Origin: Patescibacteria group bacterium
GTDB lineage: Bacteria; Patescibacteriota; Minisyncoccia; Phycocordibacterales; Phycocordibacteraceae
DNA length: 64,000 bases
Assembly (NCBI GenBank): GCA_029260935.1
Contig: JAJDCJ010000005.1
Span: 16,073-80,072 of the forward strand
Reading direction: 5' to 3'
Below are positions 37,918 to 43,848 of this stretch, piece by piece. Numbering within the stretch: position 1 is the first letter of the stretch; each line of letters opens with the position of its first letter. Made by a program: the position numbers and the translations under genes. The notes under the pieces are model-generated. The model did no database searches. It had not been told where the DNA came from and saw only the letters and a list, made by a program, of their open reading frames with translations.

Positions 37918-38048
37918 GACAAAACCGCCCGCTTCGCGGTACCATCGCCATTCCAATTCGTCGCGCAGCGGCGCGCCCATTTGCTTTCCGCCGCGCCTGC
38001 GGCGCGGCGGTCTTCCGTCCTCAATTCAGAAGAAGTTTCAATCTGTGC
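37918..38048. repeat. R1b, right (inverted) copy of the 131-bp repeat
   Basis: Reverse complement of 36353-36483 and abutting R2a. Confidence 0.8.
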
Positions 38049-38284
38049 TGACATTCTAACCTTTGCGCGAACCTTTTACGAGAACACTTAGCCGCCTCCG
38101 CTTCGCTCCGGCGGAACCACGCAGCGCCATTCTTTTTGCTTTTCCTTTTTAAAAAACACGCCGACAAAAAATTAGGAAAGCGGAAAAAAGAATGGCGCTG
38201 CTCGGTGGCGCTCCAGATGCGGCGTTGTGGCGGGGGCAACGCCGCATCTTTCGCCCAAAAGGCAAATGCAGTCTTAGGAAAAAT
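38044..38284. repeat. R2a, left copy of a 241-bp inverted repeat flanking the ABC transporter operon
   Basis: About 98% identical (about 5 mismatches) to the reverse complement of 40672-40912. It is internally palindromic (gcagcgccattctttt.../...aaaagaatggcgctgc and gatgcggcgttg/caacgccgcatc) and ends exactly at the stop codon of the substrate-binding-protein gene. Confidence 0.8.
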
Positions 38285-39351
38285 CAAATGTCTAAGAAAG
38301 TCGGAAGTGGACTTTTTGACTCGATGATTCCATTTGATAAGATATAATCTTGAACTGCCATGCCAATTCGTAGATACGAAAACTTTCCGTCTTCGTCAAT
38401 AAGTTCTTGTTCTGCCTCTTTGACCGAACGTGGCAAATATTCCTGTGTCAAAGCGGTTTTATAACCCTCAAGGGTATATTTTGTTGAAGCATTTTCGTCA
38501 AGATATTCAAGACTGTATCTTGCATTGTTGTCGATATCAGAATACACATAGTCAACAGAATCAAACCACATTTTCATAAACGCCTTGATCTCTGATTTCT
38601 TACTCTCTACGACACTCTTTCGTGCGACAATTCCCGTAATATCAGCAAACCCCGCATCTTCCATCGAGAAAACTGAGCGTCCACCTCGATTAAGTGTTTC
38701 AGTGAGTTGGGTCAAGCCAACAGATGCCGCATCAAGACTACCTGCTTCAGCCGCAAGAAATCCTTGATCAAGAGGGGTATCTACAATTTTTAGAGAATTG
38801 GCTGGCACATTGTTTGATGCTGCAAGAGAATAAAGCATCATGTCGAACATTGAACTTTTTTGTGCCCCAATTCTTTTAGATAAAAATTGTGCTACTTTTT
38901 CGCGGTTTTGTAGACCATTTGCGTCTAGTGTTGGTACTTCGTTTTCTCCCCGAAAAGTTACAAAAGCACCTCCCTTAAACACATATGCGGGGTACACATA
39001 TACCAATGGGTCGTTTGTTCCAGCATTTATGTTGTCCGCTTTTGTGAGGTATTCGATATAGCTGGCAAAACCAATATCAATACCTCCTCCAACAACTGCT
39101 TCCATGATGTTTTCCCAAGGTAGAGTAACGAGTTCAATATCGGTCTTATATTTTTCCTCAAGCCCCAAAGGTTCAATAGCAGCTGTCATTGCTAAATCTT
39201 GATAGGGAGATATACCAACTCGCAAAGAACCGTTCGACGACTGATTATTCAAATAAAAGAAAATTCCAACGACAATGACAGCTGCGGCGATAATGAGAAT
39301 CCATTTATACACTCCTACTTTCGCCAGAAAACTATTTTGCTCCATATCCAT
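38284..39351 (-). CDS. ABC transporter substrate-binding protein, NitT/TauT (NMT1/SsuA-like) family
   Basis: N-terminal TM/signal anchor followed by a periplasmic-binding fold. It shares an operon with a NitT/TauT permease and ATPase. Confidence 0.7.
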   Translation of the reverse strand: MDMEQNSFLAKVGVYKWILIIAAAVIVVGIFFYLNNQSSNGSLRVGISPYQDLAMTAAIEPLGLEEKYKTDIELVTLPWENIMEAVVGGGIDIGFASYIEYLTKADNINAGTNDPLVYVYPAYVFKGGAFVTFRGENEVPTLDANGLQNREKVAQFLSKRIGAQKSSMFDMMLYSLAASNNVPANSLKIVDTPLDQGFLAAEAGSLDAASVGLTQLTETLNRGGRSVFSMEDAGFADITGIVARKSVVESKKSEIKAFMKMWFDSVDYVYSDIDNNARYSLEYLDENASTKYTLEGYKTALTQEYLPRSVKEAEQELIDEDGKFSYLRIGMAVQDYILSNGIIESKSPLPTFLDI

Positions 39352-40046
39352 ATTAAGAGATTATCGAATAATGTTGTTAAGACGCCCAAAATCGTCGTCG
39401 CTAAGAGTATAACATCCAGCGAGAAGGTTGCACGGGAAGTTTGGATAAGATAACCAAGCCCCACTTGTGAACCGAGCATTTCGGCAACAACCACAATACC
39501 CACGGCTGTCGCCAGTCCAAAACGGAGCGTTGGCAGGATTGATTCAAGAATTCGAGGGAACCACCAAATCATTGTCATTCGATCAGTTGAGAGGTTGAAC
39601 GATTTAAAAAGTATTTGGTCATGTTCTCGTGGAAACTGGACAACGTTCGCACTCGCAACTAGCACATTGATACCGAGTCCTAATGTAAGGAGAATAACCC
39701 TGCCAACTTCCGAAAATCCAAACCAGAGTAGAAAGAACGGGATGAGCGCTATCGGCGGCACAGCGCGAAGCGCATTGAATGACGGCATAAAAACTTGCAT
39801 GAACCGCAGGCGATGAATAAATAGCGCACCGAAAATACCAAAAGAAATGCCGAGGACAAGAGACACGGCGATTCTTGCCGCCGTAGCGAATGTATGCAAA
39901 AGAAGTGTGTCCTTGAGTTTAATAGCAGCATCGATAACACTTATTGGCGACGGCAAATATCGTTCGGGTACGTTAAAAATAACAACAACACCAACCCAGA
40001 CGATGAGAAGCAAAAAAATACCAATAAAGATTTTAAAATATTTCAT
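39315..40046 (-). CDS. ABC transporter permease, NitT/TauT family
   Basis: Six TM helices and a binding-protein-dependent transport signature region (EMLGSQVGLGYLI). It overlaps both neighbouring genes. Confidence 0.8.
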   Translation of the reverse strand: MKYFKIFIGIFLLLIVWVGVVVIFNVPERYLPSPISVIDAAIKLKDTLLLHTFATAARIAVSLVLGISFGIFGALFIHRLRFMQVFMPSFNALRAVPPIALIPFFLLWFGFSEVGRVILLTLGLGINVLVASANVVQFPREHDQILFKSFNLSTDRMTMIWWFPRILESILPTLRFGLATAVGIVVVAEMLGSQVGLGYLIQTSRATFSLDVILLATTILGVLTTLFDNLLIWIWSKIVFWRK

Positions 40047-40654
40047 ACGCCGTTATTTTTAATTTTCCTCAGATTAGAAAAAGGCGGCTCGCCGTCAAAC
40101 TCAAAAAACTCTGCATCGTCAATAGCAACGTTATCCGTAAAATGAGCCGTCATAATAATCGGGACCTGCGGACATTGTTCGCTTTTGAGAAAATTGAGGA
40201 GGAGGAGTCGCTTTTTTGGATCAATGTAGTTCATGGGCTCGTCGAGCAAAAACATATCGGTATCAGCAACAAAGGTTCTAAATAACTCAACGATGCGACG
40301 TTGTCCAAACGACATCTCGTATGCACGTTTATGTAATATATCCTCGACGAGCGGAAAGAGCGGGTGTGTCTTCAGTTCTTCAACCGGTCGTCGAAGGAAA
40401 ATCGTCAGATTTTCAGTACCAGTCAGCCATGGTGCCAAATTGTCATCTTGCAAAACAAGGAACGACCTTTGTGGCACCAAAAACTCATCTATTGACTTTG
40501 GCTCCAAAACACCATGCAAAATTTTTAACAATGTTGTTTTGCCAGAGCCAGACGGACCGCGAATGATACCGATTCGTTTTGACAACTCAAAATCAAAGTC
40601 TTTGAAGACAGTCGCGTGTTGGTGTGAAAAATTTACCCCTGACACTTTTACCAT
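40043..40654 (-). CDS. ABC transporter ATP-binding protein, NitT/TauT family
   Basis: Walker A GPSGSGKTT, ABC signature (LSGGQ-like MSFGQRR), and Walker B LLDEP. Confidence 0.85.
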   Translation of the reverse strand: MVKVSGVNFSHQHATVFKDFDFELSKRIGIIRGPSGSGKTTLLKILHGVLEPKSIDEFLVPQRSFLVLQDDNLAPWLTGTENLTIFLRRPVEELKTHPLFPLVEDILHKRAYEMSFGQRRIVELFRTFVADTDMFLLDEPMNYIDPKKRLLLLNFLKSEQCPQVPIIMTAHFTDNVAIDDAEFFEFDGEPPFSNLRKIKNNGV

Positions 40655-40671
40655 AGTTTGAATAATACTAG

Positions 40672-40912
40672 ATTTTTCCTAAGACTGCATTTGCCTTTTG
40701 GGCGAAAGACGCGGCGTTGCCCCCGCCACAACGCCGCATCTGGAGCGCCACCGAGCAGCGCCATTCTTTTTTCCGCTTTCCTCATTTTTTGTCGGCGGGT
40801 TTTTGAAAAAGGAAAAGCAAAAAGAATGGCGCTGCGAGGTTCCGCCGGAGCGAAGCGGAGGCGGCTAAGTGTTCTCGTAAAAGGTTCGCGCAAAGGTTAG
40901 AATGTCAGCACA
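40672..40912. repeat. R2b, right (inverted) copy of the 241-bp repeat
   Basis: Reverse complement of R2a. It begins 17 nt upstream of the ATPase start codon, and its outer end is ...gaatgtcagcac. Confidence 0.8.
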
Positions 40913-40967
40913 AAAACAATGAGCCGGGCGTGATAACGCTCGGCGATTTGTTTTGTAGCGAGGAGAG

Positions 40968-41111
40968 GGGAATCGAAAGGCGGAGCCGGTATACAAGGCG
41001 AGGAGGGACGACGAGTGCTTGTCGGCGAGCCAGGGTCGTGAGCCGTAGAAAATTAAGGAATGAAATGACTATAATTTTCACGGACTCCTGACCGACTCCC
41101 TTATCCCGCAC
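40968..41111 (+). repeat. Copy B of the conserved ~150-nt element, ending in a 19-nt copy of the tRNA-Gly(TCC) 3' end
   Basis: Aligns to 32056-32207 and is preceded by hairpin 40921-40948. The terminal cgactcccttatcccgcac is identical to the tRNA 3' end. Confidence 0.6.
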
Positions 41112-41175
41112 CTGAAACGAAGAACATAGCGATGTAACCATTGATATGTTTGAGAGAAGGTGTGAGACAAGCTTT

Positions 41176-41198
41176 GCTTATCCCGCACACGAAACGAA
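41176..41198 (+). repeat. Third partial copy of the att-like motif cttatcccgcacNNgaaacgaag
   Basis: cttatcccgcacacgaaacgaag compared with 41100-41122 cttatcccgcacctgaaacgaag. Confidence 0.5.
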
Positions 41199-41300
41199 GT
41201 TCTTGCATCGTCTCCATAAGCATCCTTGCCTCACACTAAACAAAATCCCCCGCGTACGCGGGGGATTCTACCTAAAACCTAGTGACCTAGATCCTAGTCT

Positions 41301-41573
41301 CTATTTAACTGCATCCTTAAGTGCCTTTGCTGCGCGGAATTTTGGCACACGCATTGCGGCTATCTGGATAGTCTCACCAGTTCGTGGGTTTCTACCTTGA
41401 CGCGCCGGGCGCATTTTGGTTGAGAAGATACCAAGTCCGGCAACTGATACTTCTTCGCCTGACTTAAGTTCTCCTACAATGGAGCTGATAATAGTTTCTA
41501 CTACTTCCTCGGCTTGGGTTTTTGTTCCGCCAAGGACTGTTTGCACTTTTTGTGCGAGATCTGCTTTGTTCAT
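41301..41573 (-). CDS. hup: DNA-binding protein HU
   Basis: A 90-aa protein with GLGIFSTKMRPARQGRNPRTGETIQIAAMRVPKFRAAKALKDAV arm motifs. A terminator hairpin lies at 41241-41270. Confidence 0.9.
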   Translation of the reverse strand: MNKADLAQKVQTVLGGTKTQAEEVVETIISSIVGELKSGEEVSVAGLGIFSTKMRPARQGRNPRTGETIQIAAMRVPKFRAAKALKDAVK

Positions 41574-41667
41574 ACCACTGTTGTTATTACTAATATAAGT
41601 ACAAAATCATTATATATCGCGGTATTTTGTGCGCAACCCCTTAAAAAGGTTTGACTTTTATTCCAAC

Positions 41668-43848
41668 TTATTTTTTATTTCTCTTAGTAATCCATGCCTC
41701 ATACTCTTTAATAACAAGACGAGCTGATTCTTCGGCAGAAAGGTTACTAGTGTCAATCACGAGGTCAAACGGCTGGGTGTTTAAAATATCAATACCATAC
41801 AACTCCTGATAACGGCGTTTTTTACTCTCCTGTCGCATACGTGCATTGTGTTTGATATGCTCAATGGAAGCATCTTCTTCTGCCATACGCCCCTCTTCAT
41901 GAATACTTTGGTGTATGCGCTGTGCTACTAAATCATCAGAAACGGTCACGAACACCTTAAACGAGCGCTGTATCCAGTGGTAGGCAAGGCGCGAGTCAAT
42001 AACGAGATGATTTTCCTTAACGCCAAGTTCTTGAACAATCTCATCAATTTCTCTATCAATAGAAGGGTCCGCTTCTGCTTTTTCAGTAAGCTCATTTACA
42101 GACACGTTACGGTTTTCTGCAACCGATCTAAAAATGTCACCCGCCGAAAAGAGTTGGTACCTGAGTCGCCGGGCAAGTGCTCTGCCTATACTTGAGGCAC
42201 CAGCACCGTGTGTACCCGTTATAGTAATAATTTCCTTTTTTGTTCTTTGTATTACTTCTGTATCTTCTTTTTTTAATTGCTTTAAGATTCTGCCAACAGT
42301 ATGGGAACCCAAGCGCGCGACACTTTTTTCATGTCGTTTAATACTTTGTGTCTGAAAAATACCATACCCTAACACAGCAACCATAGGGAAGAGTGAGGCA
42401 AATGCGATGAGCCCAAACCCGTCAATAAGCGGGTCTCGGCCGGGAATACTTGAGGCAAGTCCCAAACCAAGTGCCGCCACAATAGGCACGGTGACCGTTG
42501 ACGTGGTGACGCCACCTGAGTCATAAGCAATAGGCACGGTTGTTTTTGGAGCGAAAAATGTAAGAATGACAACCACACTGTACCCGATGGCGAGGTACCA
42601 CACAATTGAGTCGCCGTTAATGATGCGGTATGCGCCAAGCAAGATACCTATTCCCACGCCGGACGCAACGGCAATGCGCAGAACAAATGAACGTATCGCG
42701 CCAGCACTTAAGAGCTCAGCTTTGTTCGCAATCGCCGTTAACGCTGGCTCAGCAATAGTGGTGGCAAAACCGATAGTGAAAGCGAAGAGATAGATAAGGA
42801 AAATGTTTCCCTTTACGGCAAGTGCTACTGCAATCGTCTCGCCAACAGGAAAGAGCCCAAGTTCAAGACCAACAACAAACGCATACAGTCCTAAAATAAC
42901 AAGAATAAATCCAAAGACATGAGTTATCGGAGAGGTGAGAGGTTTTCTGATAACTACCAAATAGAAAAAGAGAACCGTGAGTATAATCGGTGTCACGTCA
43001 CCTATAGTTGCAACGAACTGTGTAAGGTATGGAGTAAACGATGATGAGGCAAAAAATGCCACTGCCGCCTGCATTGACTGCGCCGCAGACCCAACAAGCG
43101 TGGCGCCTGAGAGCGAAGTAGCACTGATAACACCCGAGTACGCAACAACTCCGTAGAGTTGCACAAAAATCATCGGCAGTAGTGAAGCAAAAGCAATTAA
43201 CCCAAAGCCATCTATGATGGGGTTTCTGTTTTTTAAACTTGAGGCAACGCCAATACCTAAAGCCGCGATCAGTGGCACGGTGACCGTTGACGTGGTGACG
43301 CCACCTGAGTCGTATGCCAGTCCCACAATTTCCTGCGGTGCAAAATAGGTAACCGTCAGTGCAATAACGTAGCCGGAAATTATATACCAATGAATAGGGT
43401 GGTTGAGAAAAATACGAACAACACCGATGACAATTGCTACCCCCACAGAAAATGCCACGACAAGGCGAAGTATGAGTGCATCAATCTGTCCGTCGCTAAT
43501 AACTGCCGCTTTGTGGGCAATAGCCAACAAAGCGGGTTCTGCAATGGTGGTGGCAAAGCCAATAACAAACGCAAAAATAAGAACCCAAAACCTACGCTTT
43601 GAAGAAGCGAGTTGTGTGGCAAGATTTTCCCCAAGAGGGAAGACTCCCATTTCAAGTCCACGCATAAAAAGAGCAAGCCCGATACCAACAATTGCCAGCC
43701 CGAGCACCATGCTTGGTAAATTATCGGGAGTTGTTCGCAATATAACGAACTGGAAAAAAGCAATGACTCCGATAATAACGGTAAGGTCTAGAAATGATCT
43801 ACGAATATCGCCGACAAAGGTATAAAAATGCTTCTTGAGCTTCGGCAT
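41668..43848 (-). CDS. Fusion protein: tandem-duplicated polytopic membrane domain (DUF1538-like, two homologous halves) fused to a C-terminal cytidylate-kinase-like P-loop domain
   Basis: A continuous 726-aa ORF. The internal repeat pairs FATTIAEPAL / AYDSGGVTTSTVTVP are each present twice. The C-terminal 200 aa carry ITGTHGAGASSIGRALARRL, a P-loop in a cytidylate-kinase-like arrangement. Confidence 0.65.
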   Translation of the reverse strand: MPKLKKHFYTFVGDIRRSFLDLTVIIGVIAFFQFVILRTTPDNLPSMVLGLAIVGIGLALFMRGLEMGVFPLGENLATQLASSKRRFWVLIFAFVIGFATTIAEPALLAIAHKAAVISDGQIDALILRLVVAFSVGVAIVIGVVRIFLNHPIHWYIISGYVIALTVTYFAPQEIVGLAYDSGGVTTSTVTVPLIAALGIGVASSLKNRNPIIDGFGLIAFASLLPMIFVQLYGVVAYSGVISATSLSGATLVGSAAQSMQAAVAFFASSSFTPYLTQFVATIGDVTPIILTVLFFYLVVIRKPLTSPITHVFGFILVILGLYAFVVGLELGLFPVGETIAVALAVKGNIFLIYLFAFTIGFATTIAEPALTAIANKAELLSAGAIRSFVLRIAVASGVGIGILLGAYRIINGDSIVWYLAIGYSVVVILTFFAPKTTVPIAYDSGGVTTSTVTVPIVAALGLGLASSIPGRDPLIDGFGLIAFASLFPMVAVLGYGIFQTQSIKRHEKSVARLGSHTVGRILKQLKKEDTEVIQRTKKEIITITGTHGAGASSIGRALARRLRYQLFSAGDIFRSVAENRNVSVNELTEKAEADPSIDREIDEIVQELGVKENHLVIDSRLAYHWIQRSFKVFVTVSDDLVAQRIHQSIHEEGRMAEEDASIEHIKHNARMRQESKKRRYQELYGIDILNTQPFDLVIDTSNLSAEESARLVIKEYEAWITKRNKK

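Follow-up and report, generated by a model that had tools for sequence, protein, structure and literature searches.

Probable nested insertions behind a tRNA-Gly(TCC) gene of a Patescibacteria genome: a small serine-recombinase element and a structured tRNA-trailing element

The 3′ end of a tRNA-Gly(TCC) gene in the 64-kb stretch of Patescibacteria DNA analysed here (the window) is an insertion hotspot with at least two, and probably three, nested layers. A 12-mer, CTTATCCCGCAC, occurs exactly three times in the window, always on the + strand (starting at 36345, 41100 and 41177). Our best explanation, which we consider reasonably probable as a whole, is that these are the tRNA 3′ end and two downstream duplicates, marking an insertion site of three layers. 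The preliminary description of this DNA had proposed an integration hotspot; the insertion site and its nesting are retained here, but the boundaries and the mechanism given for it were wrong. The features of the locus are as follows (the arms of the inverted repeats are listed without a strand):

31260–31417 (−): third copy of E2, behind tRNA-Arg(TCG) (31454–31526, −)
32047–32211 (+): second copy of E2, behind tRNA-Gly(GCC) (31940–32011)
36285–36356 (+): tRNA-Gly(TCC) (ARAGORN; Rfam tRNA, 63 bits; repeat family analysis)
36338–36356 (+): repeat copy 1, the last 19 nt of tRNA-Gly(TCC)
36346–37869 (−): gene of a large serine recombinase (LSR), 507 aa, ATG at 37869 (Pfam, translation)
36353–36483: arm A, the P′ arm of attL and the last 44 LSR codons, read on the − strand (inverted repeat)
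37918–38048: arm A′, 49 nt ahead of the ATG of the LSR gene, whose 3′ end it duplicates in inverse orientation
38044–38285: arm B (inverted repeat with B′, 98%)
38284–40654 (−): cargo, three ABC-transporter genes (Pfam)
38284–39351 (−): NMT1-like binding protein (Pfam)
39315–40046 (−): ABC permease (Pfam)
40043–40654 (−): ABC ATPase (Pfam)
40671–40912: arm B′, the P arm of attR, ending in the attR core GCAC, 40909–40912 (inverted repeat; empty-site comparison)
40913–40947 (+): native tRNA trailer, comprising an A-rich stretch, a terminator-like hairpin (40923–40944) and a T run (terminator scan)
40948–41111 (+): E2, a structured tRNA-trailing element, whose 3′ strand (41093–41111) is repeat copy 2 (R1 covariance model)
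41112–41176 (+): 65 nt separating copy 2 from copy 3, a spacer or a remnant, starting with CTGAAACGAAG
41177–41199 (+): repeat copy 3, comprising the last 12 nt of the tRNA and then ACGAAACGAAG

As had been described, all three copies share the 12-mer, and the first is the end of tRNA-Gly(TCC), a gene called alike by ARAGORN and Rfam (36285–36356). The tRNA and copy 2 are identical over a longer stretch than was reported, however, namely 19 nt, CGACTCCCTTATCCCGCAC (36338–36356 and 41093–41111), from the T loop to one base beyond the discriminator. Copy 3 matches the tRNA 3′ end exactly over 12 nt (41177–41188). Copies 2 and 3 have NNGAAACGAAG in common and, in agreement with the earlier observation, are alike past the 12-mer (CTTATCCCGCAC-NN-GAAACGAAG, 21 of 23 nt, 41100–41122 versus 41177–41199). 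The positions noted for the first two copies were correct, whereas the third lies one base off the interval given for it (41176–41198). The three repeats are far above the chance expectation for CTTATCCCGCAC, which, at up to one mismatch, is approximately 0.15 matches.

The repeats had been viewed as the ends of an island with variable cargo. This does not hold for the LSR/ABC-transporter element located between tRNA-Gly(TCC) and E2 (36357–40912; 4.56 kb), which ends 181 nt before copy 2. The element is joined to its flanks at a 4-nt core, GCAC (attL, 36353–36356; attR, 40909–40912), which is all that it has in common with its target. The reconstructed attB (tRNA...GCAC/AAAAACAATGAG-hairpin) is matched by the uninterrupted tRNA-Gly(TCC) locus of a relative that is without the LSR (L082; GCAC/AAAAATAAAG-hairpin-E2), and also by the layout of the window's own tRNA-Gly(GCC) and tRNA-Arg loci. 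The 199 nt to the left of copy 2 (40913–41111) are contiguous with the tRNA in L082; they begin with the native trailer, whose layout is homologous behind tRNA-Gly(GCC), tRNA-Arg and the tRNA-Gly(TCC) of L082. The direct repeats of the tRNA 3′ end do not bound the 4.56-kb island, and the LSR element itself makes no partial-tRNA repeat.

The recombinase carries the motif YARKSTEEDD at its N-terminus and contains the resolvase catalytic, recombinase and zinc-ribbon domains of LSRs (PF00239 Resolvase, 1.7e-19; PF07508 Recombinase, 1e-12; PF13408 Zn_ribbon_recom, 1.3e-9); its PDB matches are SPbeta SprA/YokA and the A118 integrase. As in LSR systems, attL and attR are attP/attB hybrids that have only a short central core in common. 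Three junctions are present in the window: (i) tRNA/GCAC/A, (ii) B′/GCAC/trailer and (iii) A′/GTGC/B. Arms A and A′ form a perfect 131-nt inverted repeat (100%), and A′, the core GTGC (38045–38048) and B together constitute an intact inverted attP. The integrated LSR ends in ...SICAG, with its stop codon within the tRNA gene, while a spare LSR 3′ end with the conserved tail (...SICA-DILTFARTFYENT, then stop) is encoded on the + strand at 37921–38091. Pfam searches revealed no candidate gene for a directionality factor within the 4.56-kb element, and no Phage_integrase match, i.e. no tyrosine integrase, among the ORFs of 33.5–43.8 kb.

This LSR has more than 5,700 homologs (60–86% identity), often several per genome. 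Of 80 family loci, approximately 65 have a convergent tRNA immediately next to the 3′ end of the LSR gene, and 60 contain the arm pair corresponding to A/A′; the three-site layout with a common core of 4–6 nt is present in 22 fully resolved loci. The first base of a common CGAAC motif is at +13 in the tRNA half-site (32 loci), whereas in arm B it is at +19 (42 loci), which gives an offset between attB and attP of 6 nt across the family. In serine integrases the zinc-ribbon motif is shifted by 5 bp between attB and attP, and is closer to the centre in attB (PMC3783163). The family shows a half-site shift of this kind, and CGAAC may be the zinc-ribbon contact.

The reading frame of the LSR crosses the crossover core, and arm B encodes the conserved tail (...DILTFARTFYENT), which 47 of 60 loci retain, with variation at third codon positions. 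Integration therefore replaces the conserved C-terminal tail of the LSR, the last ~13–20 codons being exchanged. Judging from the sequences, inversion of the LSR segment would restore this tail. The arm-B tail is carried by 13 of 120 homolog clusters. In most loci the LSR and the tRNA converge; the LSR segment is flipped at one locus (L066), and at two others (L205 and L206) the LSR is fused to arm B; many of the supporting genomes are short-read MAGs, in which the orientation of a segment between inverted repeats is prone to misassembly.

Elements of the family are 3–8 kb long and are without phage or plasmid genes. Their cargo includes transporters, enzymes, surface proteins and defence genes, with replication genes absent. 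Nothing related to the LSR was found among viral contigs, which leaves a phage origin unsupported. At locus L031 the LSR element sits at an E2 end: an element of the same family is inserted exactly at such a copy of the tRNA end and not at the tRNA, as would befit the attachment-site-like nature previously ascribed to the repeats. The idea that the LSR requires E2 as part of its target was rejected, since E2 is present behind only 4 of ~23 resolved elements. No description of this LSR family was found in the literature, and as far as we found, its layout, with a reading frame across its own attP plus an inverted spare attP, is unreported for serine integrases.

Covariance model R1 recognizes E2 at 40948–41111 with 100.5 bits (E = 2e-25), and the single-sequence fold has z = −5.4. 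Copy 2, previously taken for one of multiple scars, is no decayed scar: it supplies the 3′ strand of the helix at the base of this conserved ~165-nt element. R1 matches the window three times only, and all three matches immediately follow a tRNA. The copy at 32047–32211 shows 89% identity to that at 40948–41111, but only from a point ~35 nt past the tRNA, and its degenerate tRNA-like end resembles the TCC type; the similarity of these two copies would fit gene conversion between residents as well as transposition. Rfam 15 (28–46 kb, E ≤ 1) returned the tRNAs alone and nothing for E2 or the repeats, and at a permissive E ≤ 10 (40880–41300) it gave chance-level matches only. No reverse transcriptase was found near E2. 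Derivation of E2 from the LSR arms was rejected, there being no blastn similarity outside the window, and assignments as a hammerhead, tmRNA-like, YrlA-like or retron RNA were dropped on inspection by eye, as their core motifs misfit and Rfam gave no support.

The E2 family was searched for with the motif GGGAATCGAAAGNCGGAG in metagenome contigs. This yielded 84 matches. At 52 of them a tRNA gene precedes the motif by 18–132 nt, and these genes cover at least 16 amino-acid types; 31 of the 52 repeat the end of their own tRNA exactly (13–24 nt), 136–364 nt downstream. Such exact repeats often run 1–5 nt past the tRNA (e.g. L087, L112, L119), some units form tandem arrays (L135, L137, L123) and many copies have degenerate ends. 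In unrelated LSR loci, R1 matches directly behind tRNAs or directly behind arm B′. The consensus fold contains 27 pairs, 17 of them with compensatory (double) changes; 93.9% of the cells are paired, versus 72% in shuffles and 30–48% with slid partners, and the covariation score (0.54 versus 0.16) was reached by 0 of 500 shuffles. The base pairs of E2 are maintained by compensatory changes, as in structured elements.

The 5′ strand of E2 complements the tRNA-like end and differs from one tRNA type to another; an inner strand tailored to each tRNA finds no simple explanation in a generic mobile cassette. E2 is also a small unit bracketed by tRNA-end repeats, and may be a non-autonomous integrative element; repeats, arrays, many copies and a presence that differs between distant relatives were seen, but no cognate recombinase, no circle junction and no pair of occupied and empty sites within one species. 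No description of E2 was found in the literature. We regard E2 as a candidate new structured RNA, widespread behind tRNA genes of Patescibacteria.

Copy 3 is the only copy that resembles a bare remnant; it looks like a solitary older or outer repeat. A scan of 41095–41310 with R1, filters off, revealed no E2 remnant ahead of it, the best score in the spacer between copies 2 and 3 being 1.2 bits. Because this spacer is without E2 signal, an "older E2 unit" would be an analogy only. In approximately 8 E2 loci (e.g. L108) an inner tRNA-like end is followed by a spacer of 10–57 nt and an exact outer repeat. The motif AACGAAG(T) follows the tRNA end in several E2 loci, and a mini-hairpin could form from GAAACGAAGTTC in copy 3.

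Other explanations of the repeats were considered. The recombinase gene adjoins the tRNA, and this gene and its cargo lie between exact 19-nt repeats, which would suit a model in which these repeats (36338–36356 and 41093–41111) are attL and attR of a 4.7-kb LSR/ABC island, with copy 3 as the scar of an earlier one. We consider this very improbable: it is contradicted by the empty site, with 40913–41111 following the tRNA in the LSR-free L082, by the same layout behind two other tRNAs of the window and by the inverted-repeat arms, which terminate at 40912. Moreover, the three sites of family members have just 4–6 nt in common, and serine recombinases require just a central dinucleotide (PMC3783163). 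Hardly credible at all is that the repeats arose by chance or are a regulatory motif of the HU gene, the latter named in the preliminary description as what would overturn the hotspot. Chance predicts 0.15 matches and sits poorly with identities of 19 nt and 21/23 nt. Copies 2 and 3 do lie 100–200 nt from the HU 3′ end, but HU is convergent, so that the repeats are beyond its terminator (41244–41267). In L082, a distant relative in which the arrangement is found again, the repeat adjoins the tRNA, 3.2 kb from HU, and tracks that genome's own diverged tRNA sequence exactly. In L083, tRNA-Gly(TCC) and HU are adjacent, yet neither the repeat nor E2 is present. The sole contig retrieved by an exact-protein look-up of HU (1.4 kb) was uninformative: its sequence is that of the window, and it stops at 41124. 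The look-up of the neighbouring DUF1538 protein retrieved no record.

A more serious rival, which we nevertheless think unlikely, holds that E2 is an immobile, vertically inherited ncRNA gene derived from the tRNA 3′ trailer, and that the repeats are not insertion scars. The basal helix would then mimic the acceptor/T arm, gene conversion with the tRNA would keep the two identical, and copy 3 would be a slippage duplication; the 3′ETS-derived RNAs of E. coli would be comparable. Such a gene would account for the strong RNA-type covariation, the invariable position directly behind, and co-oriented with, a tRNA, the 5′ strand that complements the tRNA-like end and varies by tRNA type, the presence of E2 at three of the four tRNAs of the window and its retention behind the corresponding tRNA of a relative whose protein identity, in a neighbouring gene, is 61%; the high similarity of two window copies is compatible with conversion. 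Less easily reconciled with it are the repeats that often extend 1–5 nt past the mature tRNA end into the trailer, which RNA mimicry does not need, the tandem arrays, the loci with separate inner and outer repeats, and the many degenerate ends, which imply that the identity is not under steady selection. E2 also varies in presence at orthologous tRNAs, being found at tRNA-Gly(GCC) in the window but not in L082 and being absent from tRNA-Gly(TCC) in L083, contrasts that are between distant relatives, as the nearest genome to the window shows ~61% protein identity in one neighbouring gene.

For the favoured explanation, insertion in three layers, the repeats, the element boundaries, the empty site, the E2 family with its fold and the family-wide site architecture were observed directly, whereas the order of events is inferred. 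The oldest layer would be a short unit, now 65 nt (41112–41176), between two CTTATCCCGCAC-NN-GAAACGAAG copies, with copy 3 (41177–41199) as the original tRNA end plus trailer, or as an outer repeat. The second would be the E2 unit (40913–41111), consisting of the trailer hairpin and the ~165-nt element that ends in copy 2, which pairs with the upstream complementary strand to form the basal helix. E2 units are small elements without a recombinase gene, located directly behind many tRNA types, and would arrive via site-specific recombination with the enzyme supplied in trans. Each would recreate a tRNA-like half-site behind itself, so that arrays could build up. The youngest layer would be the 4.56-kb element (36357–40912), inserted precisely between the tRNA and E2 by strand exchange within GCAC. 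The LSR would read the T arm of the tRNA as the attB half-site, the attP half-site being a T-arm-like motif 6 nt further out in the element's own arm.

The LSR element resembles the large serine integrases (phiC31, Bxb1, A118/LI, SPbeta SprA) in its domain set and its SprA and A118 structure matches, in its hybrid attL and attR with a short core common with attP and attB, and in a motif that is about half a helical turn nearer the centre in attB than in attP (PMC3783163). It differs from them in (i) the target, i.e. the 3′ ends of many tRNA types, via the universal T arm, (ii) the location of attP within the recombinase's own reading frame, (iii) a second, inverted full-length attP in every element, with arms of 131 nt and ~240 nt, (iv) the lack of an evident directionality factor and (v) a size of 3–8 kb, without phage or plasmid genes. 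The "suicidal" SSV-type integrases of archaea also have tRNA targets and a recombination site within the integrase frame, so that integration alters the gene, but they are tyrosine recombinases, which are split into two inactive halves (PMC7253208). The enzyme described here is a serine recombinase that exchanges just its last ~13–20 codons and retains an inverted spare 3′ end, and inversion could restore the gene.

Tycheposons, which carry cargo at tRNA genes of streamlined genomes, undergo successive integrations by which older elements are displaced outward and partial copies of the tRNA remain, which was in essence the first idea about this locus. Their defining genes are a lineage-specific tyrosine recombinase and shared replication and mobility hallmark genes, and LSRs occurred in only 27 of the 937 elements surveyed (bioRxiv 10.1101/2020.12.28.424599). 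Cargo at tRNA genes and partial tRNA copies are common to both systems; however, the element found here has only the LSR and the ABC transporter, and the partial tRNA copies belong to a gene-free ~165-nt structured element. Unlike a classical tRNA island, the locus has no tyrosine integrase, and the tRNA repeats are not the ends of the 4.56-kb island.

Small, recombinase-less, att-bounded elements in tandem with autonomous ones are known from streptococcal CIMEs and ICE accretion, and from Xer-dependent IMEX arrays; E2 is likewise small, lacks a recombinase and forms tandem arrays that share a site with autonomous elements. CIMEs derive from larger elements by deletion, whereas E2 has a conserved size and an RNA-like fold, in which the att copy is a helix strand. 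Among inversion systems, the hin/H segment of Salmonella carries its own recombinase, the 2-micron plasmid has FLP repeats, and inversions of the Mu G segment and the R64 shufflon switch C-termini. As in these systems, a recombinase gene lies between inverted repeats and inversion would swap the 3′ end of a gene; the circular form, as in the 2-micron plasmid, would hold two unique segments between long inverted repeats. In contrast to them, the gene whose C-terminus is switched is that of the recombinase itself, the alternative 3′ end is host tRNA antisense, and the arms are 131–240 nt instead of ~26-bp sites.

Patescibacteria have tiny genomes, whose gene gain and loss are poorly understood. 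The locus points to very abundant, small serine-recombinase gene shuttles targeting tRNA 3′ ends. The family offers a ready collection of natural integrases directed at the universal T arm of tRNAs, and its layout makes a mechanism of directionality or immobilisation testable without a separate excision factor. E2, a candidate new structured RNA that follows a large share of the tRNA genes of these organisms and may function as an RNA, would explain the pile-up of partial tRNA copies there. For annotation, the locus is a warning that partial-tRNA repeats need not delimit the neighbouring island. We propose tentatively, with distinctly less confidence than the layering itself, that E2 represents a new class of RNA-fold cassettes and the LSR elements self-truncating serine-integrase shuttles, both previously undescribed. 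If so, E2 would be a ~130–200-nt cassette that inserts behind tRNA genes, copies or carries the stretch from the T loop to the 3′ end, and uses this tRNA copy as a strand of its own fold, thereby regenerating a landing site for further insertions. The LSR would lose its tail on integration and regain it by inversion between the 131-nt repeats, and this loss and recovery would act as a built-in two-state lock on mobility.

Three copies of the 12-mer CTTATCCCGCAC are present in the 64-kb window, always on the + strand (positions 36345, 41100 and 41177), compared with approximately 0.15 expected occurrences. These exact matches bear out the three-copy repeat of the preliminary description, which had placed copy 3 one base off. 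[quoted passage not shown] It shares with copy 2 a stretch of 19 identical nt, CGACTCCCTTATCCCGCAC (36338-36356 and 41093-41111), which spans the T loop and reaches one base beyond the discriminator. Copies 2 and 3 have 21 of 23 nt in common, including NNGAAACGAAG, which follows the 12-mer in both of them.

Every gene located between the tRNA and copy 2 lies on the - strand. This region contains a gene for a large serine recombinase (LSR) and an ABC transporter, each flanked by inverted repeats.

Features of the LSR element
36346-37869, - strand: LSR gene (Resolvase, Recombinase and zinc-ribbon domains)
36353-36483 and 37918-38048: inverted repeats A/A′, 131 nt, 100% identical, flanking the LSR gene
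38284-40654, - strand: ABC transporter, three genes
38044-38285 and 40671-40912: inverted repeats B/B′, 242 nt, 98% identical, flanking the transporter
attL: tRNA...CCC-GCAC-AGATTGAAAC (arm A)
internal site: arm A′ GTTTCAATCT-GTGC-TGACATTCTAACC (arm B)
attR: arm B′ ...GTCA-GCAC-AAAAACAATGAGCC (trailer)

Arm A begins within the final four bases of the tRNA (GCAC), arms A′ and B adjoin with a 5-nt overlap (TGTGC), and GCAC at 40909-40912 forms the end of arm B′; the core alone is common to attL, the internal site and attR. Removal of 36357-40912 reconstructs the layout tRNA-GCAC-AAAAACAATGAG-hairpin-TTTGTTTTGTAG..., which is intact behind tRNA-Gly(GCC) and tRNA-Arg of the same window, as well as behind the orthologous tRNA-Gly(TCC) of L082, a relative that lacks an LSR at this site and shares with the window the gene order HU, tRNA-Gly, trypsin-like protease, MscS, tRNA-Pro, tRNA-Gly, tRNA-Arg. 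Since these three layouts are uninterrupted, the LSR element extends over 36357-40912, with 4 nt in common with its target, and the 19-nt repeat at 41093 lies outside it. The empty-site comparison contradicts a literal reading of the 19-mers as attL and attR of the island: the repeats do not mark its limits, given the intact empty site in L082 and at two tRNA loci of the window. The notion of an integration hotspot was right in spirit and wrong as to boundaries and mechanism.

Several other repeats were observed in the window. A perfect 22-nt inverted repeat (36155-36176 and 36265-36286; 88-nt loop), ending two bases inside the 5′ end of tRNA-Gly(TCC), may terminate the small ORF upstream or serve as a structure for processing. 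Two tandem 39-nt units (35949-36026; 74% identical) are also located upstream of this tRNA; at the matching position of L083, another relative, a 38-aa gene is called, the product of which appears from its sequence to be a small repetitive peptide rich in Asp, Ala and Pro. The palindrome TTTCACGTGAAA and its variant CACATGAAA, which recur in the low-GC spacer (32300-32615) upstream of the gene at 32624 and at the orthologous place in L082 (21400-21545), upstream of a UPF0102 gene, may constitute a conserved operator. The 191-nt direct repeat (42373-42563 and 43162-43352; 70% identical) inside a DUF1538-cytidylate-kinase fusion gene is ordinary, and corresponds to the two DUF1538 halves of this gene.

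The stretch of 161 nt that has copy 2 as its 3′ end shares 89% identity with one behind tRNA-Gly(GCC). Both represent E2, a tRNA-trailing structured element of approximately 165 nt, which has no match in Rfam and belongs to a family for which no description was found in the literature searched. A shorter E2 is present behind tRNA-Gly(TCC) of L082, and closes with an exact 19-nt copy of that relative's own diverged tRNA end. A scan of metagenome contigs for the conserved motif GGGAATCGAAAGNCGGAG gave 84 matches, 52 of which lie 18-132 nt downstream of tRNA genes that represent at least 16 amino-acid types. At 31 of these 52 loci, an exact 13-24-nt repeat of the own tRNA end lies 136-364 nt (mostly 136-209 nt) downstream; this repeat usually begins at CGATTCC (T loop) and often reaches 1-5 nt beyond the tRNA. 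Tandem arrays occur in three contigs (L135, L137 and L123), and L133 and L155 carry two GGGAATCGAAAGNCGGAG matches apiece. The E2 covariance model (R1) identified only 3 places in the 64-kb window, each directly behind a tRNA (Gly-GCC, Arg and, behind the LSR element, Gly-TCC). In unrelated LSR loci, its matches are directly behind tRNAs or directly behind arm B′ (L022 and L077). A second, degenerate E2-like stretch (GGATTCGAAGGCGACC...GGGGGAATCC; 31110-31250, - strand) follows the E2 behind tRNA-Arg, which suggests a decayed two-unit array there too.

The copy-2 and tRNA-Gly(GCC) stretches fold far better than shuffled sequences (z = -5.4 and -6.5, respectively). From 23 aligned sequences, a consensus structure with five helices and 27 pairs was obtained; compensatory changes occur in 17 of these pairs. 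In one of them, the N of AAAG-N-CGGAG pairs with the N′ of GAG-N′-C as A:U, C:G or G:C, with zero exceptions. Altogether, 93.9% of the cells are paired, compared with 72% for column shuffles and 30-48% when partners were slid, and the covariation score (0.54 vs 0.16) was reached by 0 of 500 shuffles. In the basal helix, GGGAATCG pairs with CGATTCCC of the tRNA-end copy, and bases further upstream, which vary by tRNA type, pair with the acceptor-strand copy.

Comparison with relatives contradicts both a chance origin of the repeats and the view that they are a regulatory motif of the HU gene. The main rival explanation regards E2 as a resident RNA gene derived from the trailer, whose likeness to its tRNA is kept by gene conversion. 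The fold and strict position of E2, and the fact that a distant relative has it behind the same tRNA, agree with this view; against it, the repeats reach into the trailer, E2 forms arrays and has degenerate ends, and its presence differs among relatives. Neither a within-species pair of empty and occupied E2 sites nor a recombinase for E2 was found, so the mobility of E2 is putative.

In another genome, L031, an LSR element is joined to the tRNA-like 3′ end of E2, not to a tRNA, and a 191-nt E2 unit is present on either side of it. E2 ends are usable attachment sites, and this junction makes the earlier idea of an array of att-like sites correct in function, although in the window the LSR took the real tRNA end.

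No E2 signal was found in the 65-nt interval that separates copy 2 from copy 3. The AACGAAG(T) motif that follows these copies also follows the tRNA end in several E2 loci (L089, L093, L095, L112 and L113), where it can form a small CGAAG-loop hairpin, and in about eight E2 loci the inner tRNA-like end is separated by a 10-57-nt spacer from an exact outer repeat (e.g. L108). We infer that copy 3 is the original tRNA end with its trailer. It would have been displaced either by an older unit, most of which has since been deleted, or by the E2 insertion, whose outer repeat it would then be. The nesting suggests that copy 3 with its trailer is the oldest component, followed by the E2 unit with copy 2, and that the LSR element would be the latest. 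The slot between E2 and the HU gene differs in content from lineage to lineage. In L082 (12597-15609) it comprises 3.4 kb, lacks a recombinase and includes genes for a cupin/CDO-like protein, a TrmB regulator and an M20 peptidase. The sole other contig with an identical HU gene, Logan contig L001 (SRR15505513; window 41124-42514), stops at 41124, only 13 nt past copy 2, perhaps because the population is heterogeneous at this junction or merely because coverage is low.

More than 5,700 homologs of the LSR were found (60-86% identity), and nearly every one with a named source comes from Patescibacteria. In about 65 of 80 genome loci, its 3′ end overlaps the convergent 3′ end of a tRNA gene (Ser, Glu, Arg, Leu, Gly, Lys, Ala or Val). 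At 60 of the 80 loci, the last ~131 nt of the frame recur as an inverted, near-identical copy that lies 30-50 nt ahead of the start codon; most of the remaining loci have too little flanking sequence or no detectable repeat. In 22 resolved loci, a second inverted-repeat pair adjoins the first and encloses 1-6 kb of cargo; many contigs of the family end within these repeats. At two loci, L019 (5530-5560 and 14285-14320) and L069, a third inverted-repeat pair, C/C′, with a T-loop-like motif takes the place of the tRNA at the LSR end, and the outer flanks are inverted repeats of one another, so modules can be chained or nested.

The core corresponds to the tRNA discriminator region and reads GCGG, GTGA or GTGC on the LSR coding strand (antisense to the tRNA). 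In all 32 loci in which the search pattern matched, the T-loop motif CGAAC of the tRNA half-site begins 13 nt from the divergence point. Arm B bears CCTTTGCGCGAACC, in which CGAAC begins at +19 (42 loci), i.e. 6 nt further out. In serine integrases, the zinc-ribbon motif is 5 bp nearer the centre in attB than in attP (PMC3783163). It is probable that the tRNA T arm acts as an attB-type half-site, which would explain the use of many tRNA species by one LSR family, and arm B as an attP-type half-site; the internal A′|B site would then be a complete attP in inverted orientation.

The + strand across A′|B (37921-38091) translates as ...SICA-DILTFARTFYENT*. The tail (D/E)(I/V)(L/I)xFART(H/Y/F)F is kept in the spare copy at 47 of 60 loci, and its variation is mostly at third codon positions (0.37 vs 0.24 and 0.16), which indicates protein-level constraint beyond any DNA-site constraint. 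The integrated frame runs into the antisense tRNA, ending ...SICAG* in the window and xGGIRT..., of variable length, in other loci, so integration swaps out the last ~13-20 LSR codons. The nearest known concept is that of the 'suicidal' SSV-type archaeal tyrosine integrases (PMC7253208). The inverted spare 3′ end suggests a tail-restoring mechanism: the gene would be rejoined to an intact tail if the LSR segment were inverted between A and A′, and likewise by integration via the other attP. Evidence for such a second state comes from L066 (tRNA, arm A, then a co-directional LSR), from L206 and L205 (LSR fused to a B-type arm, then co-directional cargo) and from the 120 best homolog clusters, of which 13 end with the FART tail and at least 75 with a tRNA-antisense tail. 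The caveat is that the orientation of a segment between inverted repeats can be wrong in short-read assemblies. A 77-codon ORF (37858-38091, + strand) covers the spare 3′ end, taking in A′ and the tail encoded in B. Its product, were it expressed, would be a free copy of the C-terminal 56 residues of the LSR, which could be a recombinase regulator or have no significance.

We found no description of such an abundant serine-recombinase gene shuttle of Patescibacteria, in which a spare attP is present in inverted orientation and the recombinase frame runs across its own crossover site. No LSR relatives were found in the viral contigs searched, and the diverse cargo lacks phage and plasmid genes. 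It includes GTP cyclohydrolase II-methyltransferase, aromatic amino-acid lyase, an FAD oxidase, beta-helix/PKD surface proteins, an N6 methylase, AAA_15/AAA_21 ATPases and many unknowns. Several cargo modules (L049, L070, L205 and L206) contain defence-type genes, in sets of N6 methylase with AAA_15/AAA_21 ATPases, EcoRI-type methylase with a GmrSD/HNH protein, or Bro-N. LSR elements may be a main vehicle for the defence genes of Patescibacteria.
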